DNA from: Bythopirellula sp.
GTDB taxonomy: Bacteria; Planctomycetota; Planctomycetia; Pirellulales; Lacipirellulaceae
Length of the DNA: 64,000 nt
Direction: 5' to 3'
Assembly: GCA_965216565.1 (NCBI GenBank)
Contig: OZ244170.1
Coordinates: 3,328,001-3,392,000, forward strand
Shown here one piece after another: positions 18,749-51,265 of the stretch. The notes below the pieces were generated by a model, which saw only the letters and a program-made list of their open reading frames with translations, ran no database searches and had not been told where the DNA came from. Numbering within the stretch: the first letter of the stretch is position 1; the number at the start of each line of letters is the position of its first letter. The position numbers and the translations under genes were made by a program.

Positions 18749-18822
18749 TATCCCCGAGTGGATTCGAACCACTAACCTTCGGCTTCGGAGGCCGACACTC
18801 TATCCAGTTGAGCTACGGGGAC
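18749..18822 (-). tRNA. tRNA-Arg (anticodon CCG), CCA not encoded
   Basis: Reverse complement GTCCCCG TAGCTCAACTGGATAGAGTG TCGGC CT CCG AA GCCGA AGGTT AGTGG TTCGAAT CCACT CGGGGAT A folds as a canonical cloverleaf. Confidence 0.97.
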
Positions 18823-24442: not shown

Positions 24443-24525
24443 GGAGGATACGCGAATTGGCTAGCAGCCTGACTCGAAATCAGGTGCCCCGCAAGGGGTT
24501 GAGGGTTCGAGTCCCTTGTCCTCCG
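24443..24525 (+). tRNA. tRNA-Ser (anticodon CGA), CCA not encoded
   Basis: Acceptor GGAGGAT/GTCCTCC plus G discriminator; anticodon arm CCTGA-CTCGAAA-TCAGG; long variable arm CCCC-GCAA-GGGG; T arm GAGGG-TTCGAGT-CCCTT. Confidence 0.92.
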
Positions 24526-24531
24526 CTTGAG

Positions 24532-26320: not shown

Positions 26321-27061
26321 TCAAATTGCATCAACAAGGAACTGCGGGTTAAGAGGCTTGCGGAACCATCGGTCCACGCCCCCCTCGCCAATCTCTAGAT
26401 TGTTGTCTTCTGGAGTAGAACCGCTAATCGCAAAAACACGTGTCTCATTATGCACACCATCCGAACGCAGTTGGCGGACCATTTCTCCGCCGCTACATCG
26501 TGGCATGTTCATGTCGACTAGGACCACCGAAGGATCGTTATGGCCTGCTAGGTACTCTAGTGCCTCGTCCCCGTCTCGAGCCGATACGACCGTATGGCCT
26601 TGCAATCGAAGAAAACCTGCAAGCATTTCGCGCTCGTTGTCATCGTCTTCCACGATAAGCACGGTCCCTGGTAGGTTTACCGTGCCCCCTGTGTTTGGAC
26701 TCTTTAGCACGTCGTTATCGTCAAGACGTTCGATGGCCCCCTGTATTTCACGAAAAGTATCAGTGGCTTCGTCACTAGCTCCAGCCTTCACCTGCTCTCT
26801 GAACAAATGAAGTCCGATACTAATCGCATGCAGTTCGTTCCGGATCTCGTGACGCACTTCTTTGGGTAGTAGGGACCATTGTTCCCTGAGCTTTTCTGCT
26901 GCTTCCGGATTATCGGATACCTCATCCCGAACAATGACGATGTCGCGGGGTGCGTCGATCCCGACTTTGGCCGTGCCCCCTTGGACTCGGACAAAATGAA
27001 CAGTGATGCCCACTTGTGGAAAAGAAATACGGTCGGATGTTCTGCGCGAGATGACGAGCAT
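26321..27061 (-). CDS. CsrA-domain / HisKA-like helix / receiver fusion protein
   Basis: N-terminus MLVISRR...ITVHFVRVQGGTAKVGIDAPRDIVIVRDE aligns with CsrA; middle HEIRNEL; receiver VLIVEDD..VLVDMNMP..FRKP. Confidence 0.85.
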   Translation of the reverse strand: MLVISRRTSDRISFPQVGITVHFVRVQGGTAKVGIDAPRDIVIVRDEVSDNPEAAEKLREQWSLLPKEVRHEIRNELHAISIGLHLFREQVKAGASDEATDTFREIQGAIERLDDNDVLKSPNTGGTVNLPGTVLIVEDDDNEREMLAGFLRLQGHTVVSARDGDEALEYLAGHNDPSVVLVDMNMPRCSGGEMVRQLRSDGVHNETRVFAISGSTPEDNNLEIGEGGVDRWFRKPLNPQFLVDAI

Positions 27062-27955: not shown

Positions 27956-28396
27956 TCACATCTCCGAAATTGGCGGCATCTCGATCACCCGCCAATAGTG
28001 ATCAAGCAACCCGATTAGCTGAATGAAGTCTTCTCCCGCCTTCGATTTAATCATGTAGCCTGCAACATGATTTTCATATGCGGCCAGCATATCGCGATCG
28101 TCGTCCGAGGTTGTCAGCACAAAGACAATTGATTTATCAAGTTCCGGGTCTTTGCGTAATTCTTCCAGGAACTCAATGCCATTCATGCGTGGCATATTGA
28201 GATCTAGCAGAACGATATAAGGGGGCTCAAGCTTCTCTTGCCCCTCTTCCCCACGAAGCATCTGCAAAGCTTCCATCCCATCCGAGGCATTCACGATCGG
28301 ATTGGCAATTTTGGCTTTTTTGAATGCGCGTTCGATGGCTTCCGCATCAATCGCATCGTCTTCCACTAGTAACACAGTTACCGTATTGCTCGACAT
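27956..28396 (-). CDS. Single-domain response regulator, Rcp1-like
   Basis: LLVEDD, LLDLNMPRMNG, VFVLTTSDDDRD...AY...VAGYM.K, YW near the C-terminus. Confidence 0.92.
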   Translation of the reverse strand: MSSNTVTVLLVEDDAIDAEAIERAFKKAKIANPIVNASDGMEALQMLRGEEGQEKLEPPYIVLLDLNMPRMNGIEFLEELRKDPELDKSIVFVLTTSDDDRDMLAAYENHVAGYMIKSKAGEDFIQLIGLLDHYWRVIEMPPISEM

Positions 28397-28744: not shown

Positions 28745-31700
28745 TTGAGCGACGACACATCTTCGGCTTTATCTTCCGAGCAAAACAAAATATTAAAATC
28801 AGACAACCTGTATGTTGTCGGCGTCGGCGCATCGGCTGGTGGACTCGATGCGATTGAGCGACTATTTGGCAATATGCCTATCGACTCCAACATGGCGTTT
28901 GTTGTCGTGCAGCACCTTTCCCCAGACTTTGAAAGTCTAATGGACGAATTGCTGGCCCGGCACACATCGATGCCAATCCACCGGGTAAAAGATGGCATGC
29001 AAGTTGAAGCCAACGGAATCTATCTGATTCCACCTAAGAAAAACATGATGTTGTCTCAAGGGAAGCTTCTGCTAACCGATCAGGATTCAGCTGGGTCTTT
29101 GAATCTACCGATCGACATCTTCTTCCGTTCCCTAGCTCAAGACGTGGGCAATCGGGCTATTGCCATTGTCCTTTCCGGGACTGGCAGTGACGGGTCTCGC
29201 GGACTCCGAGACGTTCACGATGCAGGCGGGCTGGTGTTGGTGCAGGACTTAGAGTCCGCCAGTTTCGATGGCATGCCGCGCAGTGCTGCTTCAACTGAAG
29301 TCGTCGACGTAGTCTGCCCTCCCGAATTAATGCCTCAACGAATTCAAGAGTATCTACGCAATCCAGTCGAATTCGACCGTGAACAGATTCATTATCCTGA
29401 CGACCTCACCGGAACCGGCGATCGTTACGAAATATTCCGCTTGTTTCGTCACAAGTTTGGAATTGACTTTTCCCTCTACAAGCCAGCAACCATCGATAGG
29501 CGAATCGAGCGCCGAGTTCAGCTAACTCGCTCCAATGACCTCAAATCCTATGTGGAATCGTTGGAGTCCAATACGGAGGAACTCGACACACTCTATCGCG
29601 ATCTCTTGGTCGAAGTAACGCAGTTCTTTCGCGACCCTGAATCCTTCGATATTGTGCGTACAGAAGTTATTCCGCGCATGGTCGCAGATGCAGAACCAGA
29701 TAACGAACTACGAGCCTGGGTTCCTGGATGTGCCACTGGCGAAGAAGCTTATTCTTTGGCAATGCTGTTTCAAGATGAAATTGCTCGCACTGATAAAGAC
29801 ATTAGCTTTAAGGTGTTCGCCACAGATGTTCACCAGAACTCGTTAGAAATGGCAAGTTCGGGTGTCTACACCCGCGCTGCTTTAGAAAACGTCCCGGAAG
29901 ACTTCCAGTCCAAGTATTTTACGGCTAGCGGCGATCTCTACCACATCACACGTGAATTACGTCAGAGGGTCATTTTTGCTCCCAACGACATAACACGTGA
30001 TCCACCATTTACGAAAATCGATTTTATCAGTTGCAGAAACGTGCTCATTTATCTTGAGCCCAAGGTCCAGAAGAAGGTTCTGTCTCTCTTTCATTTTGGA
30101 CTAGAGACGGGCGGAATCCTCTTCCTTGGCCCCAGCGAAAGTTTAGGAGACCTTGCCAACGACTTTGCAACGATTGATCGTCATTGGCGTATCTATCGTA
30201 AAGAACGGGATGCCCGACTGCCAATGTCTGCCCGGCTGCCAATGACGTCTGCGCTTTCTCGTGTCATTTCCCAACGTCCGCCGTTTGTGGCGAAGAGCCC
30301 TTTGCAAGGTACAGATCCTATTCTGGCAAATGCATTCCATGAATTGCTTACCAAGTATGTTCCCCCTAGCCTGCTGGTCAATGAATACTTCGAACTGGTG
30401 CATTCCTTTGGTGATGCAACAAAGCTACTTATTCAACCCGAGGGCCGATCTACGCTTGATGTGCTGAAAATGGTCAACGGCGACCTACGCATGGCGATGA
30501 GCGCTGCCCTGCACAAAGCCAGCCAACAGAGATCCCCGGTTGTTTACAAGGGCGTCCGAGTCAATCTAGATGATGAGGAACTTCAGTACAAAGTAGTTGT
30601 CGAACCCTTCTTCAAAGACAATCACCGGATGTACCTGATTAGCATGGAGCGCATTGAAGTACCTGTTGCTCCCAAGCCAAGCGAAGAGCAGTTTGACGTT
30701 CAAGAACAATCAACAGAGCGGATCTCAGTATTGGAGCAAGAACTCTCTTATACGCGCGAGTCTCTGCAATCGACCGTCGAAGAACTAGAGACAAGCAACG
30801 AAGAACTCCAAAGCACCAACGAAGAGCTCATTGCCTCGAACGAAGAACTACAGAGCACGAATGAAGAACTGCATAGCGTTAATGAAGAACTCTACACCGT
30901 CAACGCTGAGCACAAGCAAAAAATTGAAGAGCTAACTCAGCTGACGAACGATATGGACAATTTGCTGAAAAGCACTCATATCGGTACGGTCTTCTTGGAC
31001 CGCAGCCTGCATATCCGGATGTTCACACCGGCAATATCGGCTGCCTTCAATATGCTCGATCAAGATATCGGTCGTCCCATTGATCACATTGCTTTCCGGC
31101 TCGATCATCCCAACCTGATGGCAGATGTTAGCGATGTAATGCAGCATGCCAAACCCATTGAACGAGAATGCAAAGGTGCCGATCAAAAAACATATCTCTT
31201 CCGAGTGATGCCCTACAGGACAGGAGCAAATCGGATGGATGGCATCGCCATGACGGTGACTGACATCACGGCAGTAAAAGAAGTCGAAAAAGCACAGCAG
31301 AGGAATGTCGATCTTGCGCGGGCAAATAAGGATCTCCAAGATTTTGCTTACGCGGTATCGCACGATCTCCAAGCACCCCTACGTCACCTGGGTGATGCTT
31401 GCCAAGAGCTGAAGCGGACGATGTCGCCAGTAGAGCTGGAATCGTACGAACAGATGATTTCTCAAATAGGCAATTCTTCTGCCAGTCTGTCCAGGATGAT
31501 CCAAGGGCTGCTGACTTACTCTCGCGTCTCCACACGTGGCAAGACCTTTGGGCCCGTCGATTGCGAGGAAATACTCGTGGATGCGGTCGAGGAGCTTTCG
31601 GAACAGATTACCGACACACGAGCGAAAGTGACGTCGGACGATTTACCCACGATCAGAGCGGATGATCGCCAAATAACTCGCGTGTTTCTAGAGCTACTTG

Positions 31701-31993
31701 ACAACGCAATCTTATATCGAGGGAAAACGGAGCCAAAAATTCACATCGGGTGCCGCAAAGATGAGACCGACTGGTTGTTCTCATTTGAAGACAACGGCGT
31801 AGGAATCGAGGAGAGACACTACGAACGGATCTTCATCATATTCCAACGCTTAGGATTCAAACCCGAGGTGAGAGGAAACGGACTTGGCCTCGCACTCACA
31901 AAAAGGATTGTGGAACGTCATGGCGGACGCATCTGGGTAGAATCGGTACCCGAAGAGAAAACTACATTCTACTTCACAATTCCAGCAATTTAG
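28745..31993 (+). CDS. CheB methylesterase - CheR methyltransferase - coiled coil - PAS - histidine kinase fusion
   Basis: [19 protein letters not shown] (CheB); [21 protein letters not shown] (CheR); ELQSTNEEL heptads; [22 protein letters not shown]. Confidence 0.92.
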
Positions 31994-32074: not shown

Positions 32075-35000
32075 ATGGATTCGCTACAAGGAAGTCCAGA
32101 GAACCAAGATACTATTCCTTTTGTTGTCGGAATTGGTGCATCAGCAGGTGGGCTAGAAGCCTTAGAAGAGTTCTTCCGAAACGTGAAGGAAGATTCCGGA
32201 TTGTCATATGTTGTGGTCCAACATTTGTCACCCGATTTTGAAAGCTTAATGGACCAATTGCTTGCGCGGACGACTAACTTACCCATTAAGCTGATAGAAA
32301 ATGAACAGGAAATCTTAGAGAACACCATCTACCTGCTGCCTCCCAAAAAGGAGGTCATCCTTTCCGAGGGCAAGCTCCTACTGACCGATCGCCCTAAGGG
32401 ACGTGAACTGTCCTACCCCATCGACAACTTCTTTCGCTCCCTAGCCCAAGACATTGGACCGGCGGCAATCGCTGTTGTCCTTTCCGGCACAGGAAGTGAC
32501 GGTTCGCGGGGTATCGTCGATGTGCACGAATCTGGAGGGTTCGTCCTTGTTCAGAGCGAAGCCTCTGCCCGCTTCGATGGCATGCCCCGAAGTGCGTGCG
32601 ACACGGGAATTGTGGATGCCATACTATCTGCCTCAGAAATGGCGGAGGCAATTGAACGATACACGCAAAGCTCGATTGGACTGGGGCGCAGAGCCGATCT
32701 ACTCGACCCACAGAGAACCAAAGGCCCTACGTTTGCGATTCTCAATTTATTGAAGAAGAGCTATGAAATCGACTTCAGCCACTACAAAACCAATACGATT
32801 TCTCGGCGCATCGAGCGACGGGTTCTGCTCAGCGGTTCAGAGAATGTCAGCACGTATGCCAAACGCCTTCGGACCGATGACAAAGAACTTGATTCGCTCT
32901 ATAAGGACTTGCTGATCGGCGTAACGGGATTCTTCAGAGATAGCGAAGTCTTTCAGAGCCTGGAATCCGAGGTCATCCCGAAGCTGATTGAAAATATCGA
33001 TAGCGAGCAGGAAATCAGGGTTTGGGTTGTTGCCACGGCTACCGGGGAGGAGGCCTACTCGATTGCAATCTTGCTAAATGAAGCCTACGAAAAAAGTGGC
33101 AAGGTACCTCGAGTCAAAATCTTTGCCTCGGACGTTCACCATGAGTCGCTGGAACATGCCAGCCGAGGCATTTATCAGGAAGAGAGCTTAGGGGGCCTCA
33201 CTCCCGAAAGGAGAGAGAGGTATTTTGAAGAAAGGCTTGATGGCTTTCACGCTTCGCCTGAGCTACGCAAGATGGTGGTCTTCGTGCCCCATAATGTCAT
33301 CTTCAATGCACCATTTACCAATCTAGATCTGATTACATGTCGCAACTTGTTCATCTATCTAACTCCCTCGACACAAAAAAAGGTTCTATCGCTGTTCCAC
33401 TTCGGCTTGAAGACCGGAGGTTGCCTATGCTTGGGTTCTAGTGAAACGCCCGGGGAGCTCTCGCACGAATTTGAAGCTATTGACGAAAAGAGTCGCATCT
33501 ATCGCAAGCATCGCGATGTAAATTTGCCTGCCAGTATGCGGATGCCATTCTCTAGTTCACCACTTTCACTGCCTCCAATCAGCACGACTGCAACTGAGAC
33601 TCAGCCTGCCGGCATGCGGAAGCTGATGGGAACCTATGACGTATTGCTAGACAAGTACTTACCGCCCTCCCTGCTTCTTTCGCAGGAACACGAGCTCTTG
33701 CATACTTTTGGAGATGCTTCGAGCTACATGCGAGTGCCGAGAGGTCGGCCTCCCCGCAATGCACTCGACCTGTTGAACCCAGCACTTAAGTCAGCCGCAT
33801 CGGCAGCAGTTCGGCGATCGAAACAAGAGGGTTCCGCTGCTTGCTATGCCAAGCTACCAATGGCTAACAGTGATACCGAGCAGCATCTCCGTATCTCCGC
33901 CGAGGTATTCACAGAGCAAGACAACCAAATACTGGTCTGCTTTTCACTAGAAGACGAAGTCACTATCGCAAACAGGCCTGCGGTAGAGATTGGGCATGCT
34001 GATATCACCTCAGAAGAGTACGACGCACTAGAAAGAGAATTAGCACGCACCCAAGCAAACCTCCAATCCACTGTAGAGGAAGCTCAAACCACCAACGAAG
34101 AACTCCAGGCCGCCAACGAGCAGCTCACTGCATCGAACGAAGAATTGCAGAGCACAAACGAGGAGCTTCACAGCGTTAACGAAGAGCTCTACACAGTCAA
34201 CGCAGAGCACCAGAGAAAAATCGATGAGCTAATCGAACTCACCGACGACATGGACAATCTGCTTAACAGCACAAACATCCACACAATTTTCCTAGACCGC
34301 CAGCTACGGATTCGTCGATTCACTCCCGGAATCCGTGAAACGTTCAACTTATTGAGTCAAGACGTAGGTCGACCTTTCGGTTCGTTCACACATAACATCA
34401 ATCACGACAATCTAGCCAGGCTTGCTGAAAGCGTGATCGACTCCAAGTCGTCCGTCGAGCAGGAAGTCCAAGATAAGAACGACCATTGGTACCTACTTCG
34501 AATTCTGCCCTATCAAACGAGAGGCCAGGTTGACGGGGCAGTCCTAACCCTCATCGATATCACTTCGTTGAAACAAGCAGAGTCGAAGCTGGCCGAATTG
34601 TCGGAAATCGTAGAGCATTCGGACGATGCGATTTTCCGACAGGACATTGACGGTACAATTCGCACTTGGAACCGTGGAGCAGAGCGGCTCTTTGCTATCA
34701 AAGCCCCTAAGGTTCTGGGAGGACACGTCGAAATGCTCGGCCTCGATTGCCGAGATATTGCATTCAATAAGATTCTAAAACTCACCGCCAGCGGCGAATC
34801 GCTCGACCACATCGAAGCCCGACACAAACGCCAAGATGGCGATTTCGTCGATATCGCGATCTCGGTTTCTCCAATTCGAGATGTCAACGGCAATGTCATC
34901 GGAGCGTCTACCATTGCCCGGGATGTCACTCGACAGAAGCAAGCAGAGGCAGAAGTCCGCGAAGCGGTTAAACGACGCGATGATTTCCTTGCGATGCTTT

Positions 35001-36070
35001 CGCACGAATTGCGTAATCCATTAGCTGCCGTTCTCAATGCTACCAATCTAATGACAGAAATCGGCCTTCAAGAAAAACCAATCGAAGAAGCCAAAGACGT
35101 GATCGAACACAATGTTCGGCACGTCGCTCGTATCCTTGATGATCTACTCGACGTGTCGCGAATAGCAAACGACAAGATCAACTTGCACAAAGAAGTCGTT
35201 GACCTGTGCTCCCTAACGATTGATGTTGTCGAATGCGTCCAGCACCGCATTGATGACAAAGGGCAGGAACTACACGTCCATCAGCCGCCCGAACCGTTGT
35301 ACGTGGAGGGAGATGTTGGTCGTTTGCAGCAGATGCAAGTCAATTTGTTGGTAAACGCATCGAAGTATACGGCTGAGGGAGGACGCATCGAATATGAAGT
35401 CTATCAAGACGGCGATGAAGCTATCATATCGGTCACGGACAATGGCGTTGGGATCCCAGAGAGCTTATTGAATACGATTTTTGAGCCGTTCGTACAGGCA
35501 GAACAAACAATCGACCGAGCACAAGGAGGCATGGGCCTGGGGCTTACCTTAGTTAGCAAAGTAGCCGAGGCACATGGTGGCAGTGTCTCTGCAAATAGTG
35601 ATGGAAATGGCATGGGAAGTTGTTTCTCCATCATTTTGCCTATCACCAGGAAGCGTCCAAAGTCTCAGGTGCAAACAGAGCTTACCGAGATCGATGGCTT
35701 GAAGCTGGTCATTGTCGAAGACAATGACGGCGTGCGAAACATGCTTGCGCGGACCCTCGAACTGAAAGGCTTTGTCGTTGCCACAGCAGCAACAGGCCGC
35801 GAAGGAATTGAGTTGATTCAGCAGATGCATCCCACCGTTGCGGTGATTGATATCGGTCTCCCCGACCTCAATGGCTATGAGGTAGCTAATGAGATTCGTG
35901 ATGATCCCGAACTTCAAAACGTGCTAAAGGTGGCTCTTACGGGCTACGGGCGGGATCGAGATCAACAGAAAGCAATGCAAGCTGGGTTTGACATTCACCT
36001 TGTAAAGCCGCTCGACCCCGACGAATTGCTTCGCGCCGTCGCCGAAAAGTATGTCGCCATTACAAGCTAG
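32075..36070 (+). CDS. CheB-CheR-coiled coil-PAS-PAS hybrid histidine kinase with C-terminal receiver
   Basis: Same CheB/CheR motifs; FLAMLSHELRNPL; NASKYT, DNGVGI, GGMGLGL; receiver VIVEDN..IDIGLPDLNG..ALTGYG..HLVKP. Confidence 0.93.
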   Translation: MDSLQGSPENQDTIPFVVGIGASAGGLEALEEFFRNVKEDSGLSYVVVQHLSPDFESLMDQLLARTTNLPIKLIENEQEILENTIYLLPPKKEVILSEGKLLLTDRPKGRELSYPIDNFFRSLAQDIGPAAIAVVLSGTGSDGSRGIVDVHESGGFVLVQSEASARFDGMPRSACDTGIVDAILSASEMAEAIERYTQSSIGLGRRADLLDPQRTKGPTFAILNLLKKSYEIDFSHYKTNTISRRIERRVLLSGSENVSTYAKRLRTDDKELDSLYKDLLIGVTGFFRDSEVFQSLESEVIPKLIENIDSEQEIRVWVVATATGEEAYSIAILLNEAYEKSGKVPRVKIFASDVHHESLEHASRGIYQEESLGGLTPERRERYFEERLDGFHASPELRKMVVFVPHNVIFNAPFTNLDLITCRNLFIYLTPSTQKKVLSLFHFGLKTGGCLCLGSSETPGELSHEFEAIDEKSRIYRKHRDVNLPASMRMPFSSSPLSLPPISTTATETQPAGMRKLMGTYDVLLDKYLPPSLLLSQEHELLHTFGDASSYMRVPRGRPPRNALDLLNPALKSAASAAVRRSKQEGSAACYAKLPMANSDTEQHLRISAEVFTEQDNQILVCFSLEDEVTIANRPAVEIGHADITSEEYDALERELARTQANLQSTVEEAQTTNEELQAANEQLTASNEELQSTNEELHSVNEELYTVNAEHQRKIDELIELTDDMDNLLNSTNIHTIFLDRQLRIRRFTPGIRETFNLLSQDVGRPFGSFTHNINHDNLARLAESVIDSKSSVEQEVQDKNDHWYLLRILPYQTRGQVDGAVLTLIDITSLKQAESKLAELSEIVEHSDDAIFRQDIDGTIRTWNRGAERLFAIKAPKVLGGHVEMLGLDCRDIAFNKILKLTASGESLDHIEARHKRQDGDFVDIAISVSPIRDVNGNVIGASTIARDVTRQKQAEAEVREAVKRRDDFLAMLSHELRNPLAAVLNATNLMTEIGLQEKPIEEAKDVIEHNVRHVARILDDLLDVSRIANDKINLHKEVVDLCSLTIDVVECVQHRIDDKGQELHVHQPPEPLYVEGDVGRLQQMQVNLLVNASKYTAEGGRIEYEVYQDGDEAIISVTDNGVGIPESLLNTIFEPFVQAEQTIDRAQGGMGLGLTLVSKVAEAHGGSVSANSDGNGMGSCFSIILPITRKRPKSQVQTELTEIDGLKLVIVEDNDGVRNMLARTLELKGFVVATAATGREGIELIQQMHPTVAVIDIGLPDLNGYEVANEIRDDPELQNVLKVALTGYGRDRDQQKAMQAGFDIHLVKPLDPDELLRAVAEKYVAITS

Positions 36071-36122: not shown

Positions 36123-37427
36123 TTGCGTTGCCAACATCCTACACTCACAACATCCAACTGGTGCACACCTTTGAACACGACTCGTAGAACTGCGTTGAAA
36201 GGAATCATCGGTTCTGGTGTGACATTCGGAACCGCTCCCTATGCCTTCGCTAAACGAAAACACACGCTTCGAGTGTTGGGGACGCATGTCACACTGCAGG
36301 AGGCACTCCGCAAGCAGGCTGAAAAAGACTTAGGTATTTCTATCGAGTTTCAGCCCGGTGGTAGCGCCAGAGTCTTGCACCAGGCATCCACACAACCCGA
36401 ATCGTTCGACCTTTACGAACAATGGTCGAACAGCATCAAAGTGCTTTGGCAAGCGGGGGCCATTCAATCCATCGACGTAGAGCGTTTGACGTATTGGAAA
36501 GAGATAAACAATCTCACCAAAACAGGACAACTAACTCCTGCTGCAAACACTGGTGCCGGCGATGCTCCTAATAAACTACTATTCGTTCAAGAAAACAATG
36601 CGCTCGGCGATAACACAACCGGCAACATCAGCTTCCTGCCCTACGTTCACAATGTCGACTCGTTTGGTTACGATGCGGGCATTGTAGATCGTGGGGTCCC
36701 ATATGAAACCGAAAGTTGGGGCTGGCTCTTTGATGACCAGTGGCAAGGTCGTGTAGCACTGGTGAATGCTCCAACTATTGGACTCTTCGACGCAGCCCTC
36801 GGTGCGCAATCGAGGGGACTGGCTGAATTTGCAGACATCGGCAATATGACTAAGCCGGAAATTGATTCCCTGTTCCGGTTACTCGTCGACTTGCGGCGGC
36901 AAGGACACTTCCGTGGCATCTGGAGCAGCGTGCCACGCTCGGTAGAGCTTATGAAGCGAGGCGAAGTCGTCATCGAAAGCATGTTCTCGCCCGGCGTATT
37001 TGCCCTCAAAGGCGAAGGAATCGATTGCGTCTATGCATCGCCTAAAGAAGGCTATCGTGCCTGGCACGGCGTGATGTGCCTTTCCTCGCAGACCGAAGGC
37101 AGCGCCAAAGACATGGCCTACGAGTACATGAATTGGTGGCTTTCCGGCTGGCCTGGGGCGTTTATCGCTCGGCAAGGTTATTACATTTCCAATCCCGAAC
37201 GAGCCCGTACTCATTTAAGCAACGACGAATGGGATTATTGGTACGAAGGCAAACCTGCCCGCTCCGATCTTTTGGGCACCGATGGGAAGGTGGTCGTCAA
37301 ACAAAACGAAGTGCGCGATGGTGGGTCCTACACACGTCGGTTCAGTAATATCGCAGTGTGGAATACGGTGATGGACAACTACGAATACACGTTACAGGCG
37401 TGGAACGAATTTCTTTCCGCAGTATAA
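36123..37427 (+). CDS. Periplasmic solute-binding protein, PotD/polyamine-like class, Tat-type signal
   Basis: TRRTALKG twin-arginine signal; SWGWLFD..W.GRVAL; PKEGYRAW; AYEYMNWWL. True start may be TTG at 36171. Confidence 0.75.
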   Translation: MRCQHPTLTTSNWCTPLNTTRRTALKGIIGSGVTFGTAPYAFAKRKHTLRVLGTHVTLQEALRKQAEKDLGISIEFQPGGSARVLHQASTQPESFDLYEQWSNSIKVLWQAGAIQSIDVERLTYWKEINNLTKTGQLTPAANTGAGDAPNKLLFVQENNALGDNTTGNISFLPYVHNVDSFGYDAGIVDRGVPYETESWGWLFDDQWQGRVALVNAPTIGLFDAALGAQSRGLAEFADIGNMTKPEIDSLFRLLVDLRRQGHFRGIWSSVPRSVELMKRGEVVIESMFSPGVFALKGEGIDCVYASPKEGYRAWHGVMCLSSQTEGSAKDMAYEYMNWWLSGWPGAFIARQGYYISNPERARTHLSNDEWDYWYEGKPARSDLLGTDGKVVVKQNEVRDGGSYTRRFSNIAVWNTVMDNYEYTLQAWNEFLSAV

Positions 37428-37445
37428 TCTCTGCAATCTCAAGCT

Positions 37446-39290
37446 ATGCCAACTCAGTCTCTCAAATCGAAAATATTTGCTGGATTTGCAATCATTGTAC
37501 TATTGCTGATCGCTAATGGGATTGTTTCCTATTTGGGCCTTGAGCATGTTCGCTCTGACAACTCCCGTCTAAGTCAGGTCGAGGCAACCCGCAACACGAT
37601 CCAACGCATCGACCGAGACGTGCAGGAACTGAAACTACGCGTCGCGCGTTATGTTTCGACTGGATACGATTCCCAACGAGAGGAAGCGCACCTCCTCTAT
37701 CAGCGCTTGATCGATAACCTGGACGCTGCTAAGGAGAGGGAACTGGAACCTACGACGTTGCAATTACTCGATCAAATTGGCGGCCATTTGCAGGAATACT
37801 CGAAACAATTCGAATTGGTCACCCAGGAACGAAGCCTTCGCGAAAAACTCGTCAATGTAGAACTTTCCTCCCAAGCAGAAGATGTCGCTAAAGGATTCTC
37901 TCAATTAGCTTCCTTCTCGGATTTAAACGAATTGTCAGACTCTGCACTGCTGGAAATGCTGCAAGTCCAGGCCTTGTTTACAGAAGCTGAGCAATCTCTG
38001 CTGCGGTACTTTGAAACTCCCGATTCCCTGCATGCTAGTTCTTTCGTTCGCTCAATCAACGCCACCATCTCTGGAGTAGAGTCAACAGAAGGGCCCAAAG
38101 AGGCTCTGAACTCCCTAGTCGAGTCGGTTCAACAGTTTGAACGTCTCGGCATCCGTGCCATTCAGGCTACAAGAAGCTATATGTTTCTCTTAAATGTTGT
38201 GATGTCAGGAGAGGCCTCGGAGATTTCCTATTACTCCCGTGTGCTGAGTGATCGTGCTGAGCAAAGCCGCGACGAAATTTCTGCCCGCGTGGCTGCCACG
38301 AGTAGTCGCGTGAAAAGGACGACGGGCTTCACCGTTCTAGCCGCCATTATTCTTTCCAGCTTGATCGCAGGTCGACTGGGAATGCTTATCGTCCCCCCCA
38401 TTACCGCACTCACAAAGGCATTTGGCCAACTTTCCTCTGGCGAAACGCTACACGAAATTCCTGGCACCGAAAGACACGACGAAATTGGCCAAATGGCGCA
38501 GGCCGCGAAAGTCTTCAATAGCCAAAACCTAAAAACTCGCGAACTCCTGGCCGAATCCGAGCAGCTTAGTAACGAATTACAGGAACAAGCGTTGGAACTA
38601 GAGTTGATGAACCAAGACTTAGACAGTTTTGCGTACGTCGCATCGCACGATCTCAAATCTCCTTTACGAGGAATCCGACAGTTAGCCACCTGGATAGAGG
38701 AAGACGCCGGGCAACACCTGCCGGCAGAATCTGCCAAACACCTAGAGCTATTGAAGTCCCGCATCACAAAAATGGAAACACTCTTAGAAGACCTACTCGA
38801 GTTTTCGAGAGTGGGCCGTATTGAGCCAACCGCCGAGGAAGTCGATCTCTCTGAAATGATGCAGTCCCTGGTTGATTTGACCGACAACCCAAATCGCGTT
38901 GAAGTGCAGTGGGCCAATGATATGCCCACCTTCAACACATTGCGAGCACCTCTGGAACAAGTTCTATTAAACCTCATTGGCAATGCTATAAAACACAATC
39001 ACCGGGACTCACACGGACGCGTCGACATCGAGTGCCACGAAATTGGCGACCGGTACAGGTTTATGGTAAAAGACAATGGTCCAGGAATTCACAAGAATGA
39101 CCATGAACGCGTGTTCCAAATGTATCAGAGAGTCGGGGACACAAGTATCGAAGGCAGTGGTATGGGGCTGGCGATAGTGAAAAAACAGATTGAACATCTT
39201 GGCGGGGAAGTCACGCTCGACTCTCAGCTGGGAGAGGGAACAACTTTTGAATTCACCTGGCCTGCAACAATAGAAAACACTCAGGCGTAA
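37446..39290 (+). CDS. Membrane sensor histidine kinase (TM - helical periplasmic domain - TM - HAMP - HisKA - HATPase)
   Basis: Two TM helices; HAMP PITAL...ERHDEIGQMAQA; FAYVASHDLKSPL; NAIKH, DNGPGI, GSGMGL. Confidence 0.92.
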   Translation: MPTQSLKSKIFAGFAIIVLLLIANGIVSYLGLEHVRSDNSRLSQVEATRNTIQRIDRDVQELKLRVARYVSTGYDSQREEAHLLYQRLIDNLDAAKERELEPTTLQLLDQIGGHLQEYSKQFELVTQERSLREKLVNVELSSQAEDVAKGFSQLASFSDLNELSDSALLEMLQVQALFTEAEQSLLRYFETPDSLHASSFVRSINATISGVESTEGPKEALNSLVESVQQFERLGIRAIQATRSYMFLLNVVMSGEASEISYYSRVLSDRAEQSRDEISARVAATSSRVKRTTGFTVLAAIILSSLIAGRLGMLIVPPITALTKAFGQLSSGETLHEIPGTERHDEIGQMAQAAKVFNSQNLKTRELLAESEQLSNELQEQALELELMNQDLDSFAYVASHDLKSPLRGIRQLATWIEEDAGQHLPAESAKHLELLKSRITKMETLLEDLLEFSRVGRIEPTAEEVDLSEMMQSLVDLTDNPNRVEVQWANDMPTFNTLRAPLEQVLLNLIGNAIKHNHRDSHGRVDIECHEIGDRYRFMVKDNGPGIHKNDHERVFQMYQRVGDTSIEGSGMGLAIVKKQIEHLGGEVTLDSQLGEGTTFEFTWPATIENTQA

Positions 39291-39296
39291 CGATTT

Positions 39297-39731
39297 ATGA
39301 ACCCTGGTACTCTCACAGTCTTAGTCGTGGACGATGACGTTGTTGACGTAGAAATCGTTGAGCGTGGGACAAGACAACGCAATTTGCCCTGCGAAATGAG
39401 GTCTATGCCAGATGGCCGGCATGCGCTGGAATTCTTGCGAAGTGACTCGTTGACGGAGGATCAGCGAGAACGATTAGCGATTGTTCTCGACATAAATATG
39501 CCAGGCATGAATGGCCATCAATTTCTAGAAGAGTTACGCAAAGACCCTCAGCTGCGTCGTACTCTCGTGTTTGTCCTATCCACATCAGACCACGTACGCG
39601 ACAAATCAAAGGCCTACGACATGAACGTTGCGGGTTACTTTACCAAGCCAAACATTGACTCGCTAATCGATACATTGGAACTCTATGCTCAGCACGCTGA
39701 GTTCCCTCCTTGGCCAGGCGGACTAAACTAG
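39297..39731 (+). CDS. Single-domain response regulator, Rcp1-like
   Basis: VLVVDDD, VLDINMPGMNG, VFVLSTSD..RD..KAY..NVAGYFTKP. Confidence 0.9.
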   Translation: MNPGTLTVLVVDDDVVDVEIVERGTRQRNLPCEMRSMPDGRHALEFLRSDSLTEDQRERLAIVLDINMPGMNGHQFLEELRKDPQLRRTLVFVLSTSDHVRDKSKAYDMNVAGYFTKPNIDSLIDTLELYAQHAEFPPWPGGLN

Positions 39732-39732
39732 C

Positions 39733-39783
39733 AAAAAAACGAGGCGGCAGCAGGAGAACCAATGGCTCCCCCACTACCGCCTC
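39733..39783 (-). terminator. Rho-independent terminator downstream of the second CsrA-receiver gene
   Basis: On the minus strand, a long hairpin GAGGCGGTAG...CTGCCGCCTC followed by GTTTTTTT. Confidence 0.7.
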
Positions 39784-39866: not shown

Positions 39867-40667
39867 TCAAGCTCCGATCATCTCTCCCCTGCAACGCGCA
39901 CTGTCTCCAGGCACGTTAGCGTCGAAGGCAAGACGAAATACCAAGGCCTCGGGGTCGAGCGGTTTTGGAAACCAGCCATCGACACCTTCCGGCCCTACTT
40001 CCACGCCGTAGTCGGTGGGATCACCACCACTAACGGCAAATACTTTTAACGTTCGCAAACGGTTGTTCGCTCTCATCCGACGGATGGCTGTTGCACCATC
40101 CATCTTGGGCATTTGCATATCGAGCAGCACAATATCGGGCGTGCGATTGACGTCCAAGTAATCGAGCGCTTCCTGGCCGTTGCTGGCGAGATCGACGTCA
40201 TAACGCTTCGTTCTCAAATAACTGGCCAACAGTCGCGATTCGTTGGCGTTATCATCGACCAGAAGTGCGCGGGGCGATTTGCAATCTTCCCTCGGGGCTG
40301 AGGGGTTTTGCGACTTGCCAGAGGGACCGGCAGCAATTTGATTGTCAATTCCTTTCAGGTGATGGAATATCTCTAGCATCAAATGCTCTGTCTTGGCATC
40401 CTGCGTAGCATTAGATAATTCTTGCAGCTCTTGAAGTGCTTGCGTAGCGTTCTTCAAATGTAGATTCCGCTGGGCGTCTGAACTCGGATGCGAGATAGAG
40501 AAAGGCTCATTCTCTTCTCCTGCCAGTTCGTGACGTAGTACGCGAACATCACGAGGAGCATCTATGCCGACGCGTACCTTGTTGCCGTCAACACGCAAGA
40601 TCTGCACACTGATTCCTAAGCTCGGGAAGAGAATTTTATCGTCTTCCCGACGAGACAAGACCAACAT
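39867..40667 (-). CDS. CsrA-domain / receiver fusion protein
   Basis: MLVLSRREDDKILFPSLGISVQILRVDGNKVRVGIDAPRDVRVLRHE aligns with CsrA; receiver ALLVDDN..VLLDMQMP..FPKP. Confidence 0.87.
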   Translation of the reverse strand: MLVLSRREDDKILFPSLGISVQILRVDGNKVRVGIDAPRDVRVLRHELAGEENEPFSISHPSSDAQRNLHLKNATQALQELQELSNATQDAKTEHLMLEIFHHLKGIDNQIAAGPSGKSQNPSAPREDCKSPRALLVDDNANESRLLASYLRTKRYDVDLASNGQEALDYLDVNRTPDIVLLDMQMPKMDGATAIRRMRANNRLRTLKVFAVSGGDPTDYGVEVGPEGVDGWFPKPLDPEALVFRLAFDANVPGDSARCRGEMIGA

Positions 40668-41778: not shown

Positions 41779-42019
41779 TTCGTTTCGCTGGAGGACTTAG
41801 AACCGCGTTCTCCCGCCCTGCCCTACAGACCTTGCTAGCAATACCAGCAAGCGGCAACTCCAAAATGTAAATCTGTAACGGTTAGCTTCAAACTTCTCAA
41901 TCAACCGCCAGTAACGGTTCGATCAATTCTCCGTAGCGGTGCGCCGTAATTCTTGGGCGTCCTCGCTCGTCGTGTACTTTGGGGGTGCGCGGCAACTCAT
42001 TGCTTCTACTCTTGCTGCT

Positions 42020-42033
42020 GAACAAGGACGTTC
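42020..42033 (+). promoter_or_regulatory. Candidate CsrA-binding hairpin over the SD of the pentaheme cytochrome gene
   Basis: GAAC-AAGGAC-GTTC: ANGGA hexaloop closed by a C-G pair, 5 nt before ATG 42039. Confidence 0.45.
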
Positions 42034-42038
42034 GCTGC

Positions 42039-44675
42039 ATGGTGCGAAATAGGTTGGGAAAACACAGAAATCCTGTGGTGTTGTTCGGCTCAGTGCTGCT
42101 ACTGAGCGCCGTGGTAGGCGTTTGGCACGCGGAACAGGTCGAGCAGGAGCGCCTTGCGCGGATTTCGGCTTCTAGTTCGTCTTCTGCCCTGTCCATCAAT
42201 GAAGCTGGACAGAACTTCGAGCAAGATATCGAAGAAGAGGCCTATCTGGTCGAAATGCAAAAAGCCCTGGCTCAGGCCGGTTGTCCAGGGTGGATGACGC
42301 TAGCCAGCGAAGGCGAAGCGGCGCTGCACCCTCCAGAATCTGGCGGCGACATCCAGCAAGTCGCGCATGCCCAACCGGTGACAGCAAGTGAACTCACTGA
42401 GAGAACGGTTCCGCGTGTTTCTTATCCCGTCCCGGTAAGAGTTGCCAGCAGGCCGCGGATCTCGGTAGCCTTGCGCGAAGCTCATCCCGTGGCAGGATCG
42501 CCAGAAGATCCCGATGACTTGCTCGATGGCCAACCTGACCTGCTGAGCACCCCTGCAGGAGATCATGCAGAAGAATCAGAACCGCAGGCACCACCGCAAC
42601 CGCCAGCGGAAAGTGCTAGCACGAACGAGAACGTTCCCGAGCAGCCGCAGTCAGCGCCCGCCAATCAGCCAGCACCAAGAGTGCAACCTCCCACCACACC
42701 AGCTCCGCCTGCCGTGGAAGTGCCTCCTTCGGCTACGCAAACTCCCACGATCACCGGGCCCGATCTTAGTTTGCCGTCTGTAGAAATGCCTACGAGTGAA
42801 CAGCCCGTCAATGTCCCGCTTGATTTGACTCCCCCGGCTAAAGAACCCGCGGAGCCGGTCCAGCCCAAGCCCGTCTTCAGCTCCCCGCCAGCTGCCAAAC
42901 AGACAAGCCCCAGTGTCCCGAGACAGGAAACCATCGAGGCGCCTGCGCCGTCTCCATTTTCGCCTCCACCCCGTCCCGCGGCCCCCCACTCGGTTTCTGC
43001 CCCGGCCAAGAAAGACAAGGCAACTTCGCATTGCGAATTCGTGGCACAGAACTGCTTTCCCACTGCCGAGGCATGTTCGAAGTGCCACGAGAAAATCTAT
43101 GACGAATGGCGCGGGTCGAGCCATGCCTACGCGGCCATCTCGCCAATGTTTCATAAATTCGAGCAGAAAATCAACGATCTCTCGCAGGGAACGATCGGCT
43201 ACTTCTGCTATCGCTGTCACATGCCCGTGGGCACCACGATGGGCGTCTCACGCGACGCACCGCTATGGGATTTGCCTCAGGTAGCTCGCGAAGGTGTCAC
43301 CTGTGTGGCCTGCCATCGAGTGAATCAGCGCTATAGCAAGGTCAACGGCGAACGTCGCATCGAGCCAGGCAACATCCACGCACCCGTTTATGGTTCCATC
43401 GGCGGTGGCGGCGTTGCCGAAGTGTTGGCACACAAGAATGAATTCAAGGTGAAGACGCATCCCAACGAGCCTGGCCCGGGACAAGACATTCACGTTGCCG
43501 GCTATTACTTCGATCAATTGCACAAGGCGGAGTTCTGTGTTTCGTGTCACCAGGTGGCCGTGCATCCAGGCATCAAGCTGGAGGTTGTGTGGGAGCAATA
43601 CCGCGCTTCGCCCGCTTGCAAGAAAGGCATCTCCTGTCAGGACTGCCACATGGGTCGGCTCCCGGGCGTGCCTAGCGGTTACGAGTATGATTCAGCCGCC
43701 GTAGTGAATGGCAAGAGTGTTAACAAACATCGCAAGCATGCCAATCACATGTTCTACGGACCGGGCTATTCGATTGCCCATCCCGGCATCTTCCCGCACA
43801 ACCCTAAAGCAAAACGCTGGTCGATGCGCGAGTGGCTGCTGTTCGATTACCGCAATGGCTGGGGAACAGAAGAATTTGAAGAACGAGTTGCCAACGGACA
43901 AATCCGCTTGAATTTCCCGCCAGTGTGGGCAGAAGCCGACGACCGCTACGATGCTCGCGAGATCGTCGAGGACAACCAAACGAAGCTATCCGAAAAGGCG
44001 TTGATGCGTCAGCAGCTGATGGAAAACGGATCGCATGTGGATGGACCCTTCTTCGATGGACCCCAAGCGCGCGGTCGCGATTTGGAATTTCACTACATCG
44101 TTACCAACACGAACGAAGGTCATAATCTGCCGAGTGGTTCCTTAGGTGCTCAGCCTCAACTTTGGGCCAACGTGGCCCTTATCGGTCCGCGAGGGAACCG
44201 ACTGTGGGAATCGGGATACACCGACCGGTGGGGGGATGTCGCGGACATCCACTCTGAGGACGTGCGTCATAAAAGAATTCCCTACGACTGGCAACTATTC
44301 AATCTACAAACGATGTTCCTCATTACCGGTGCCAAAGGTACCGACCGTGAGTTCCCCTTACCGGTGAATGTTGACTTCGATCAGCTCCCCTACCTGCGTC
44401 CCGGGGCCCAGCCAATTTCGGTATTGAACCATCCACCGTTTATTCGCATGGAAGGGCGCTCGCTGCCGCCGCTCGGCTCGCGGCAGGTGCCGTACAAAGT
44501 CCCCGGCCACTTGATGCAAGAGCCCGGTTGCTACCGGTTGTCGTTCCGAATGCGAAGCCGAGCCGAACCGATCTACTTCATGCGTTTTTGCGACGCGACC
44601 AAGGAAATGCAACGCGCCATGAATGAATGGATGGTCGACTTTCACCAATCGTCGGTGCAATTCATCGTTAAATAA
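42039..44675 (+). CDS. Pentaheme c-type cytochrome (c554/c552-like core) with long Pro-rich N-terminal linker
   Basis: CSKCH, CYRCH, CVACH, CVSCH, CQDCH; N-terminal hydrophobic signal/anchor; GHNLPSG motif; AAGGA SD supports start 42039. Confidence 0.88.
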   Translation: MVRNRLGKHRNPVVLFGSVLLLSAVVGVWHAEQVEQERLARISASSSSSALSINEAGQNFEQDIEEEAYLVEMQKALAQAGCPGWMTLASEGEAALHPPESGGDIQQVAHAQPVTASELTERTVPRVSYPVPVRVASRPRISVALREAHPVAGSPEDPDDLLDGQPDLLSTPAGDHAEESEPQAPPQPPAESASTNENVPEQPQSAPANQPAPRVQPPTTPAPPAVEVPPSATQTPTITGPDLSLPSVEMPTSEQPVNVPLDLTPPAKEPAEPVQPKPVFSSPPAAKQTSPSVPRQETIEAPAPSPFSPPPRPAAPHSVSAPAKKDKATSHCEFVAQNCFPTAEACSKCHEKIYDEWRGSSHAYAAISPMFHKFEQKINDLSQGTIGYFCYRCHMPVGTTMGVSRDAPLWDLPQVAREGVTCVACHRVNQRYSKVNGERRIEPGNIHAPVYGSIGGGGVAEVLAHKNEFKVKTHPNEPGPGQDIHVAGYYFDQLHKAEFCVSCHQVAVHPGIKLEVVWEQYRASPACKKGISCQDCHMGRLPGVPSGYEYDSAAVVNGKSVNKHRKHANHMFYGPGYSIAHPGIFPHNPKAKRWSMREWLLFDYRNGWGTEEFEERVANGQIRLNFPPVWAEADDRYDAREIVEDNQTKLSEKALMRQQLMENGSHVDGPFFDGPQARGRDLEFHYIVTNTNEGHNLPSGSLGAQPQLWANVALIGPRGNRLWESGYTDRWGDVADIHSEDVRHKRIPYDWQLFNLQTMFLITGAKGTDREFPLPVNVDFDQLPYLRPGAQPISVLNHPPFIRMEGRSLPPLGSRQVPYKVPGHLMQEPGCYRLSFRMRSRAEPIYFMRFCDATKEMQRAMNEWMVDFHQSSVQFIVK

Positions 44676-44707: not shown

Positions 44708-46591
44708 ATGCCATCGCAATCCCATAGCTTCGAAGCAGCAATACTCAGGCGACTGATTTTGTCGACCCTGATCTTGCTGTCGATGTGTGGGCTAGCAAAG
44801 GCCGAGGCCTCAGGGCAACCTCTCTTTGAAGAGCCGGCAGCTCGCCTGGCTCAACGTTGCGGGCCCTACTCGAATTGTTGGCCGCGAGTTGAGGGACGCG
44901 ATTGCAAAACTTCGCTGCTGCCATCGACCACAACAGGCCCGTTGGAATCGCCCCTATTCGGACCGCCGCAGGTAACGCGTCCGCTAATCGGTCCGCCTCT
45001 ATTGCGACTTCCTCCCGTCCATGGCTGCCCACCCGATAAATGCCCGCCTCCATCTGCGCCGGGCTATATGGCCAGCCCGTTCCGGTTCGGGATCGCTTCG
45101 CCCGTTCCACCAGCAGTGGTTTCGGCGCACGCTCCGCCTTGGGAACAACTGCCCACGCAAGCGGAGCTCAAGGGCAAGGTGATGCGTGCCACGCCGCATC
45201 GTGCCGATTGTCGTAGTTCGCATGGGCAATATAGTAGCGGCGACTTCACGCCCGATCCCTTCTACAATGGCAATTGGGAAGTCTGTCAGGAGTTGGGCAT
45301 CTATGGCAACAAACGTCTCAATCCCGTCCAACGCCCGGCCATCGAATGGGGCTTGCCCTTCTATTTGAATGGCCCCATCCCGCGTTCCGAAACATGGCTT
45401 GGGAAAACCAACCTGGTGCAACCCAAGTTCTATGTCTACGGCGACTACCGGTCGGCGATGGCATACAACGACTTCAACGGCAATGACCAATCTATTTGGG
45501 CGAACCGTTTGAATTTGGATATCGATCTATGGATTACTTCTACAGAGCGATTCCATATGTTCTGGGGACCGCTCGACGAACGGCTCGAATTCACTAGCCT
45601 CGTCTACGACAATGGTGAGGTAAACAGAAACGATGCCTGGGATGGCTGGGACCAGCGTACCGATACGATGTTTTTCGAGGGCGATCTGGGCTACATCCTC
45701 GGCGGACTACAAGGCATCGAAGCCCCCTTCGACCTGCCGTTTGCCGTCGGCTTGATTCCGCTGGTTTATCAAAATGGTATTTGGATCGAAGACGCATTCG
45801 TCGGCGCGGCCATGACGATTCCCGCCAGAAACAACCCGACGCTAGATTGGTCCAACTTTGATACCACTGTGTTTGTTGGCTTTGACGAAGTCACAAACAA
45901 TCAAGCTTTTAACAATGACAACCGTGCCGCCAATATCGTAGGCGTCACGACGCAAATCGAACGTCGGGGCGGGTATTTCGAATTTGGCTACGCCTTTCTC
46001 GATGATGACGAGCAGCTAGGCCGCAGTTTCCATAGCATCGGTGCGTCCTACACCAGACGCTATTTGAATCTCCTTTCCAATTCAGTCCGCACCCTAGTGA
46101 ACACGGGCCAGGACGGGCCGCGCGATTTGCGGCCTGCAGATGGCGTGTTGGTGCTCGTCGAAAATAGCTTCCTCACTCGCAATCCTTACAACGTAATCCC
46201 CTATGCCAACTTCTTTGCCGGCTTCGGTACGCCCCGGTCAGCCGCTCGCCTGCAGGGGCCTCTGAAGAACACCGGCATCAATTTCGAGTCCGACTTGCTC
46301 ACCGGCTACCCTCTGTTGGACGACACAGGGAACAACACCTACGGCGGTGCGATCGGCGTCGATCTCCTGGGCTGGGATTTCGAGCAGCAGTTGATTCTGG
46401 AGTTTGCCTTCTTGCAAGCATTCGACGACGCCGCGAGCCGCGCTGCTCCGGGAGATCAGTATGCCGCCGGTATCCGCTACCAAAAGCCGCTGAGTCACAC
46501 GCTAATTTTCCGCGCCGACGCGATGCATGGCTGGCTGGAAAACGCCGAGGACATCAGCGGTGCCCGCATGGAACTGAGGCGGAAGTTCTAG
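44708..46591 (+). CDS. Putative outer-membrane beta-barrel protein
   Basis: Signal peptide; alternating amphipathic strands (FYVYGDYR, LNLDIDLW, YFEFGYAFL, LILEFAFL, IRYQKPL); C-terminal ARMELRRKF ends in Phe. Confidence 0.7.
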   Translation: MPSQSHSFEAAILRRLILSTLILLSMCGLAKAEASGQPLFEEPAARLAQRCGPYSNCWPRVEGRDCKTSLLPSTTTGPLESPLFGPPQVTRPLIGPPLLRLPPVHGCPPDKCPPPSAPGYMASPFRFGIASPVPPAVVSAHAPPWEQLPTQAELKGKVMRATPHRADCRSSHGQYSSGDFTPDPFYNGNWEVCQELGIYGNKRLNPVQRPAIEWGLPFYLNGPIPRSETWLGKTNLVQPKFYVYGDYRSAMAYNDFNGNDQSIWANRLNLDIDLWITSTERFHMFWGPLDERLEFTSLVYDNGEVNRNDAWDGWDQRTDTMFFEGDLGYILGGLQGIEAPFDLPFAVGLIPLVYQNGIWIEDAFVGAAMTIPARNNPTLDWSNFDTTVFVGFDEVTNNQAFNNDNRAANIVGVTTQIERRGGYFEFGYAFLDDDEQLGRSFHSIGASYTRRYLNLLSNSVRTLVNTGQDGPRDLRPADGVLVLVENSFLTRNPYNVIPYANFFAGFGTPRSAARLQGPLKNTGINFESDLLTGYPLLDDTGNNTYGGAIGVDLLGWDFEQQLILEFAFLQAFDDAASRAAPGDQYAAGIRYQKPLSHTLIFRADAMHGWLENAEDISGARMELRRKF

Positions 46592-50444: not shown

Positions 50445-51265
50445 AGCACTCCCCCATCGAACAGGTGGGCGAGCACTCCGTGCAATGCCGCGAGTAACAA
50501 GAGTGGATAGGTAAGACCGATGTGCAAGAACAACCACATCTTCAACCGCCACTGCAAAGCGGAGTGAAAGTCGAGATCGTCGCGGCGGCGAATCAACGCG
50601 AACAACTGCTCGCAATACTGCTGTTCGGCGCTGGAAAGGTAACGACCGATTGAAGTGAGGCCTGCCAAATGAGACCGGCGCAATTCGCTGTTAGGCTTCA
50701 GATAGTATCCGAGCCGACGTGGCCGCTCGAAGTATGACTGCAAGTTCTCTGCGTAGTATTCGCCCAAGGTGGTCGCGCCTGAGGAGCGTACCGCCGCCAG
50801 CGCGACTTGCTGGGCCCGCTCCTGCAACTGGCTCCGCAGCATGGGGATGCGCTCGTAAATCACTTCCTCAGCAACGTTGGCCAGCTTGGGTGGCAACGTC
50901 CTGGTCCAATAGAGCCCTAGCAACCCACTGGCAAAGGTTAGCCCATAGAGCACGGCGAGAATCGTCTCCAAACTTCCATTGGGTAACCGCCAGGAAATAT
51001 GCATTCCAAAGACAGCCGCAGATGCCAGGCCGACATAAATATGTGTTTGCAACCAGGCGGCCGAGGACCCCCACGATGCCACCGGGATTTTTTTGCGCAG
51101 ATTATAAGCCGCCAAGAATAGCAGAGCGGCGAGGAGCAGATAGCCTGTCTGGAAATCGGTGCGTGCCAGCCGATAGTCCTGCCAGCGACACCAAATCGCA
51201 ACCGCTGCCACCGCGGCAATCGCAATGGCTGAATTTCGTAGTCTCCGACTGACGAATGATCTCAT
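50441..51265 (-). CDS. Integral membrane protein, His-rich (ferric-reductase/cytochrome b-like)
   Basis: About 5 TM segments; His pairs WLQTHIYVG...GMH and WLFLHIGL...ALH; YNLRKK loop. Confidence 0.75.
   Translation of the reverse strand: MRSFVSRRLRNSAIAIAAVAAVAIWCRWQDYRLARTDFQTGYLLLAALLFLAAYNLRKKIPVASWGSSAAWLQTHIYVGLASAAVFGMHISWRLPNGSLETILAVLYGLTFASGLLGLYWTRTLPPKLANVAEEVIYERIPMLRSQLQERAQQVALAAVRSSGATTLGEYYAENLQSYFERPRRLGYYLKPNSELRRSHLAGLTSIGRYLSSAEQQYCEQLFALIRRRDDLDFHSALQWRLKMWLFLHIGLTYPLLLLAALHGVLAHLFDGGVL

Follow-up and report, generated by a model that had tools for sequence, protein, structure and literature searches.

A histidine-less and a histidine-bearing CsrA-receiver protein in a planctomycete signalling cluster, and their possible pairing

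CsrA contacts RNA through residues of strands 1 and 5 (Met1, Leu2, Leu4, Arg6, Arg7, Val40, Val42, Arg44, and Ile47), among which Arg44 is the main RNA-contacting arginine. The ANTAR regulators AmiR and EutV are the established case of RNA binding controlled by phosphorylation. ChpT passes phosphate to two receivers (CckA-ChpT-CtrA/CpdR), and both ChpT and Spo0B are separate proteins that keep a degenerate ATPase-like domain. Control of CsrA is known to be exerted by sponge RNAs or FliW, and FliW was suggested to be a CsrA regulator in Planctomycetes, in a paper whose relevant passages do not contain fusion proteins (PMC4682653). Planctomycetota encode many CsrAs, and the largest functional survey of CsrA took only proteins of ≤100 aa, so that fusions lie outside it (PMC13443453). 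CsrA is named as an output domain of response regulators in a 2007 paper (PMC2222644), which refers for this to the Galperin 2006 classification.

Two CsrA-receiver fusions, proteins A and B, are encoded in the window, by which we mean the whole 64,000-nucleotide stretch of the Bythopirellula sp. genome (G000) that was analysed (Table 1). The preliminary description of the locus had recognised a CsrA-like domain and an intact receiver in both proteins. Indeed, A scored 56.3 bits against Pfam CsrA (PF02599, cut-off 27, residues 1–50) and 74.0 bits against Response_reg (PF00072, cut-off 30.2), and the corresponding scores of B were 46.3 and 67.0 bits. The description overlooked the helical hairpin located between the two domains, which carries His71 in B and lacks the histidine in A. 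No HATPase domain was found in A or B by Pfam. The genome encodes 12 CsrA domains, three fused to a receiver and nine in stand-alone paralogues of 67–129 aa. The third fusion, which is His-bearing (G000:C1:2179922-2180686), sits behind a CheB-CheR hybrid kinase, and a 129-aa csrA is located 1.2 kb downstream; the whole locus spans G000:C1:2175192-2182295.

Table 1. Positions of genes A and B, their domains, and neighbouring signalling genes in the window
Feature	Position	Strand	Evidence
Gene A, 266 aa: CsrA and receiver flanking a His-less helical hairpin	39867..40667	-	ORF, Pfam, structure model
A, CsrA domain, residues 1–50; R6, R7, R45, E47 kept	40518..40667	-	Pfam, alignment
A, degenerate DHp-like hairpin, residues 61–113; Ala65 in the family His column, R-N motif absent	40329..40487	-	
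A, receiver, residues 133–246; phospho-Asp183 codon 40119-40121	39930..40271	-	Pfam, fold match
Terminator-like hairpin, 20 pairs and T run, 3' of gene A	39741..39783	-	consensus match only
Gene B, 246 aa: CsrA and receiver flanking a His-bearing DHp-like hairpin	26321..27061	-	ORF, Pfam, structure model
B, HisKA-like hairpin, residues 67–114; His71 codon 26849-26851; R74, N75 present	26720..26863	-	
Hybrid kinase CheB-CheR-PAS-HisKA-HATPase-receiver (His977, Asp1259), Hpt absent; putative phosphate source	32075..36070	+	
Orthodox kinase CheB-CheR-PAS-HisKA-HATPase, usually in the same cluster	28745..31993	+	
Single-domain receiver, of the type accompanying orthodox kinases	27956..28396	-	
Trio of solute-binding protein, HAMP kinase (37446-39290), and single-domain receiver, between hybrid kinase and A	36123..39731	+	

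The CsrA domain of A contains Met1, Leu2, Leu4, Arg6, Arg7, Val41, Val43, Arg45, and Leu48. Residues 1–48 align with the solved CsrA chains 1y00, 2bti, 1vpz, 2jpp, and 7yr6 with E-values from 2.5e-6 to 1.2e-5, and Arg45 is aligned on Arg44 of 1y00 and 2bti. The CsrA domain of B contains Met1, Leu2, Ile4, Arg6, Arg7, and Arg45. The strand 1 motif and the equivalent of Arg44 are thus intact in both proteins, in agreement with the preliminary description. The receiver of A contains Asp138, Asp139, Asp183, Ser213, and Lys235, and that of B differs in this set only by Glu138. The structure model of A matched the response regulator RR468 (PDB: 3gl9) in Foldseek with an E-value of 1.4e-10 and an rmsd of 2.0, and a receiver match to EutV (PDB: 6wsh) had a Z-score of 15.7 and an rmsd of 2.1 over 112 aligned residues. 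Fold searches with the models of A and B returned only receiver matches, which filled the lists and left the hairpin and the CsrA domain almost unprobed.

The search with A found 622 proteins, and the combination of CsrA and receiver seen in the preliminary description was present in 119 of the best 120, which argues against a chance join or an assembly artefact; the organism names given were Planctomycetota. Pfam CsrA was matched at E ≤ 0.01 by all 54 A-type and all 80 B-type members of the alignment. A full-length match to the fusion occurs in 89 of 401 genomes of the same order, and at least 8 of 301 genomes contain a fusion according to a phylum-wide search, which scored eight candidates per genome and therefore undercounts; it found the fusion of genome G190, which another search had missed. 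Among 80 loci listed in a genome scan there are at least 17 fusions, 16 of them labelled Planctomycetota and one located on a metagenome-assembled contig labelled Alcaligenaceae. The latter encodes a CsrA-hairpin-receiver fusion (L026:10001-10708), and the contig may be misbinned. The family is very probably the CsrA-output entry of the Galperin 2006 classification, as this is represented in the paper that cites it (PMC2222644), and the novelty claimed in the preliminary description was therefore overstated. Our literature searches found no experimental study of a CsrA-receiver fusion, nor any reference to a paralogue without the histidine or to the pairing of His-less and His-bearing proteins. 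The architecture is real, widespread, and catalogued, and it is the division of labour between His-less and His-bearing proteins that is apparently undescribed.

The hairpin of A is formed by helices of residues 61–85 and 91–113 (mean pLDDT 82.4), and that of B by helices of residues 67–93 and 96–114 (mean pLDDT 78.2), according to the structure models. Of 362 sequences, 27 were removed as partial or duplicate, and 251 of the remaining 335 distinct full-length fusions have a histidine at the start of the first hairpin helix, in the position of an H-box. The 250 His-bearing members outside the clade of A have an arginine at position +3 from the histidine in 93% and an asparagine at +4 in 94% of cases, and the +1 position is occupied by glutamate in 42% and aspartate in 9%. 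Pfam HisKA was matched at E ≤ 0.01 by 36 of 80 B-type proteins compared to 0 of 54 A-type proteins; B itself scored 19.2 bits (E 0.0013), which is under the cut-off of 26.9. The B-type profile aligns with the DHp domain of the adjacent hybrid kinase, which has the same H-E-L-R-N box, with an E-value of 1.3e-4, whereas the A-type profile does not. No kinase-complete longer forms (432–2000 aa) were present among 333 candidates, a result that carries little weight. Because the histidine and the Arg/Asn pair are kept, the +1 acid occurs in about half of the sequences, the ATPase domain is absent, and the hairpin resembles HisKA and DHp domains, we infer that the B-type hairpin is a kinase-dead phosphotransfer element.

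Protein A groups with 62 other sequences in a clade of 63 with a FastTree support of 0.967, which persists with a support of 0.973 when the hairpin columns are removed. A histidine occupies the family His column in only one of the 63. The receiver residues Asp139, Asn142, Glu143, Asp183, Ser213, and Lys235 and the CsrA residues Arg6, Arg45, and Glu47 are conserved in all members, and Leu146 and Leu147 from helix 1 are also invariant. Since the H-box was lost while the catalytic and docking residues of the receiver stayed invariant, A, as judged from its sequence, could not relay phosphate but looks fully able to accept it. The possibility of a displaced phospho-histidine in A was rejected, as His70, His102, and His103 are conserved in just 54%, 40%, and 48% of the clade, respectively. 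The histidine is also missing from about 20 sequences outside the clade.

Genes of the A and B types are linked. A profile of the His-less clade identified 56 places in 55 of the 401 genomes, and the His column was read in the best 30 of these, 14 of which were His-less and 16 His-bearing. A His-bearing orthologue of B is present in the same genome for all 14 His-less genes and, in 13 cases, on the same contig at a distance of 0.5–13 kb. In 11 of the 13 same-contig cases, A and B are separated by an intact CheB-CheR hybrid kinase, and in G685 the kinase is split over two open reading frames. In G559, A and B are adjacent, and the best match to the hybrid kinase is about 776 kb away. In G924, the two genes are found on separate contigs, and no kinase lies closer than 9 kb to A. 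Among 17 genes of the B clade, 14 have an A-type partner, two have a CsrA-receiver protein without a hairpin about 6 kb away, and one has neither; the last is B of G423, which stands alone, as about 29 kb to its left and right contain no partner. The hairpin-less proteins (L291:16848-17420 in G635, 190 aa, and L292:2752-3312 in G911, 186 aa) are encoded across a hybrid kinase from a His-bearing B-type gene. They fall outside the clade of A in the FastTree tree and may therefore represent a separate loss, and an acceptor-only partner may possibly have arisen twice, independently. In an indirect comparison, made by eye, of A-type homologues on contigs of at least 10 kb, the longest contig of 10 out of 18 was equal in size to that of a B-type homologue. 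The 14 linked cases come from eight genera and three families, involve a single A-type and a single B-type clade, and are thus not independent; probably, they reflect one inherited event.

The surroundings of the fusions point to the hybrid kinase as a partner of the His-bearing type. A hybrid kinase is located within 6 kb of 47 of the 61 His-bearing fusions with flanks of at least 6 kb, only an orthodox kinase near three, and no kinase near 11, as determined with kinase-domain profiles built from G000. The idea that loss of the histidine tracks an adjacent orthodox kinase failed: among 12 His-less genes with 6 kb flanks, seven have a hybrid kinase, two only an orthodox one, and three none. 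When helix 1 of the receiver of A was compared with those of the other 46 receivers of G000, the nearest were B, the third fusion, and the receivers of two CheB-CheR hybrid kinases (ranks 1, 2, 3 tied, and 5). The next-door single-domain receiver scored 1 against helix 1 of A, compared to 16–31 for the nearest receivers. Orthodox kinases from different clusters share an S-H-D-L-x-x-P-L-R box and mostly occur with a distinct type of single-domain receiver, and the one in the window probably serves the receiver beside it. The sole Hpt found in G000 is fused to another hybrid kinase and no free Hpt was found, so that hybrid kinases without an Hpt appear to need a histidine relay. In the stretch G000:C1:1487053-1489792, a stand-alone csrA is located directly upstream of this only Hpt-bearing hybrid kinase. 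No MCPsignal (chemoreceptor) domain was detected at E ≤ 0.001 in G000, which is 94% complete, despite the presence of three CheB-CheR kinases.

The trio of binding protein, kinase, and receiver is absent from the orthologous clusters of relatives. Based on synteny only, it is probably a separate module that was inserted between the hybrid kinase and A; no repeats or shift in composition marking it as an insertion were seen.

The complex of B and A was predicted with a score of 0.81, compared to 0.01 for the best control. The mark used for complex scores is reached by 116 of 157 solved pairs and 2 of 215 mismatched pairs, counts that are only a rough guide when own alignments are used. At least 95% of contacts are common to the runs, and the pLDDT of the partners is at least 81. 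The tightest contacts in the model are formed by the CsrA strands, which give an intertwined CsrA dimer. In addition, the helix containing His71 of B docks on helix 1 of A and on the loop that follows Lys235, which we take to be the faces used in kinase-regulator complexes. The contacts beyond the CsrA strands include residues 71, 74–75, 77–83, 85–86, 89–90, and 93 of B and residues 140, 142–143, 146–147, 149–150, 153, 185, 214, and 235–240 of A. The confident contacts do not include any between the hairpins or any involving the hairpin of A or the receiver of B, which is not evidence against their touching. The predicted CsrA heterodimer is likely to owe part of the score to its resemblance to CsrA dimers of known structure, and the predicted docking of the hairpin on the receiver may reflect family-wide covariation that a B:B dimer would also show. 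The suggestion of heterodimers in the preliminary description nevertheless gains support from the conservation of the paralogues as a linked pair and, with that qualification, from the model.

The loss of the histidine from A and its retention in the nearby B make it likely that the two proteins pair, with one handing phosphate to the other. The scheme that we favour, to which we give somewhat less than an even chance, is a branched relay of the His-Asp-His-Asp kind. Phosphate would pass from His977 to Asp1259 of the neighbouring hybrid kinase and load His71 of B, which would transfer it to Asp183 of A in A:B heterodimers, predicted to form through the CsrA fold, and to Asp183 of B in B:B dimers. 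The fused CsrA would bind RNA, and phosphorylation would shift the receivers and thus alter binding to GGA-type leaders. The outputs of the relay would be translational regulators that differ in their subunit make-up. The broader proposition, that planctomycetes possess a branched relay with CsrA itself as its end point and that some lineages divide it between a donor paralogue, which keeps the histidine, and an acceptor-only paralogue, which lacks the histidine or the entire hairpin, the two forming an asymmetric, phosphorylation-switched, RNA-binding CsrA heterodimer, is possible and, on present evidence, rather doubtful.

The direction of transfer at His71 could be the opposite of that in the branched relay. 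The DHp of the hybrid kinase would then phosphorylate the receiver of A directly, and the hairpin of B would be mainly a phosphatase or drain that resets A. In HisKA proteins, an acidic residue at +1 is needed for autokinase activity, and Asn or Thr at +4 for phosphatase and not kinase activity (PMC3510030), and the phosphatase-type asparagine is the residue conserved in 94% of the His-bearing members. Furthermore, the modelled docking of the His71 helix on A fits either direction, and the receiver of A could dock on the hybrid DHp or on the B hairpin, which are alike. The retention of the histidine in 251 of the 335 fusions, and the seeming need of the Hpt-less hybrid kinases for a histidine relay, speak against the reversed direction, which we regard as unlikely. 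In addition, a tethered receiver usually outcompetes free ones, which counts against the direct route from the hybrid DHp. It is more improbable still that A does not depend on B and is phosphorylated in one step by the HAMP kinase or the orthodox CheB-CheR kinase of the window. A adjoins the trio to which the HAMP kinase belongs, an orthodox CheB-CheR kinase is part of the cluster in 10 of 14 genomes with A and directly follows A in five, and the search of the G603 cluster yielded no single-domain receiver. However, no fusion locus harbours any of the homologues of the binding protein of the trio, which occur in a further 13 of the 401 genomes, and the orthodox kinases are mostly paired with their own receiver type, whose helix 1 is unlike that of A. 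Moreover, in three genomes whose clusters yielded no intact orthodox kinase (G559, G685, and G808), A is still located next to B. These observations leave such a one-step route very unlikely, the least probable of the explanations weighed here.

A different alternative concerns the output: the CsrA module could be chiefly a dimerisation scaffold, with A acting as a phosphate sink that tunes the hybrid pathway and RNA binding being weak or independent of phosphorylation. A does not reach the NCBIfam equivalog thresholds that define stand-alone CsrA (47.9 compared to 73 bits for NF002469 and 42.6 compared to 70.1 bits for TIGR00202), and the fusion family has an F-P-x-L-G insertion in CsrA and a leucine or valine at the position of His43 of solved CsrAs. 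Nine stand-alone CsrAs are available in G000 for RNA control, and about half of the CsrAs from nature did not pass an assay in B. subtilis (PMC13443453). On the other side, Arg45 is present in 100% of the 63 His-less and 100% of the 250 His-bearing members, with Leu2, Leu4, Arg6, and Lys or Arg at position 7 likewise kept. CsrA is also the best-kept part of A between orthologues, with 42 and 37 of 50 residues kept in two comparisons in which the hairpin retains 25 and 22 of 51. The conservation of RNA-contacting positions speaks against the scaffold function, which we consider quite unlikely, a little less so than phosphorylation of A without B.

An Rfam search of the window found nothing but two tRNAs and, in particular, no match to a sponge RNA. 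One of these, tRNA-Ser (24443-24526), is located just ahead of the signalling cluster, and the other, tRNA-Arg (18748-18822), lies beside a phage-type integrase (17446-18624). Cytochrome c-type genes (41979-44675 and 48414-50615) and an unannotated 627-aa open reading frame (44708-46591) are upstream of A on the other strand. A crude scan of the non-coding DNA of G000 for the density of ANGGA motifs, performed without a shuffle control, identified 51 clusters, none of them near A or B. A non-coding 7-base tandem repeat with 14 ANGGA motifs (G000:C1:313614-313709) is located about 10 kb from fliW-csrA; it could be an ordinary VNTR or an array of binding sites for CsrA. The fliW gene of G000 adjoins a separate stand-alone csrA within the flagellar cluster.

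If the branched relay is correct, receiver-fused CsrA would represent a third route of control beside titration by sponge RNAs and FliW, namely direct covalent control. Control of mRNA translation by kinases would be direct, in a phylum where numerous CsrA paralogues are unstudied, and the A/B pair would provide the Hpt-less hybrid kinases with a plausible output. In the case of a split relay, the mixing of subunits would set both the path of phosphate and the mRNA targets. The pair names a candidate donor (His71 of B), acceptor (Asp183 of A), and kinase, which makes the idea directly testable.

The A and B proteins are similar to CsrA, RsmA, and RsmE in the strand 1 motif and the equivalent of Arg44, an intertwined dimer being predicted for A with B, and differ from them in the fused hairpin and receiver, the F-P-x-L-G insertion, and, in the case of A, the sub-threshold NCBIfam scores. 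The combination of a receiver with an RNA-binding output is shared with the ANTAR regulators AmiR and EutV; however, these have another RNA-binding fold, act by antitermination and not translational control, carry the receiver at the N-terminus, and lack a His hairpin. By analogy to ChpT and Spo0B, the hairpin of B may be regarded as a kinase-dead, His-bearing DHp-type element that is encoded near a hybrid kinase and apparently serves two receivers. In contrast to ChpT and Spo0B, it lacks an ATPase-like domain and forms part of a larger protein, flanked by an RNA-binding domain and a receiver, and the paralogue of B would itself be one of its receiver-bearing clients.
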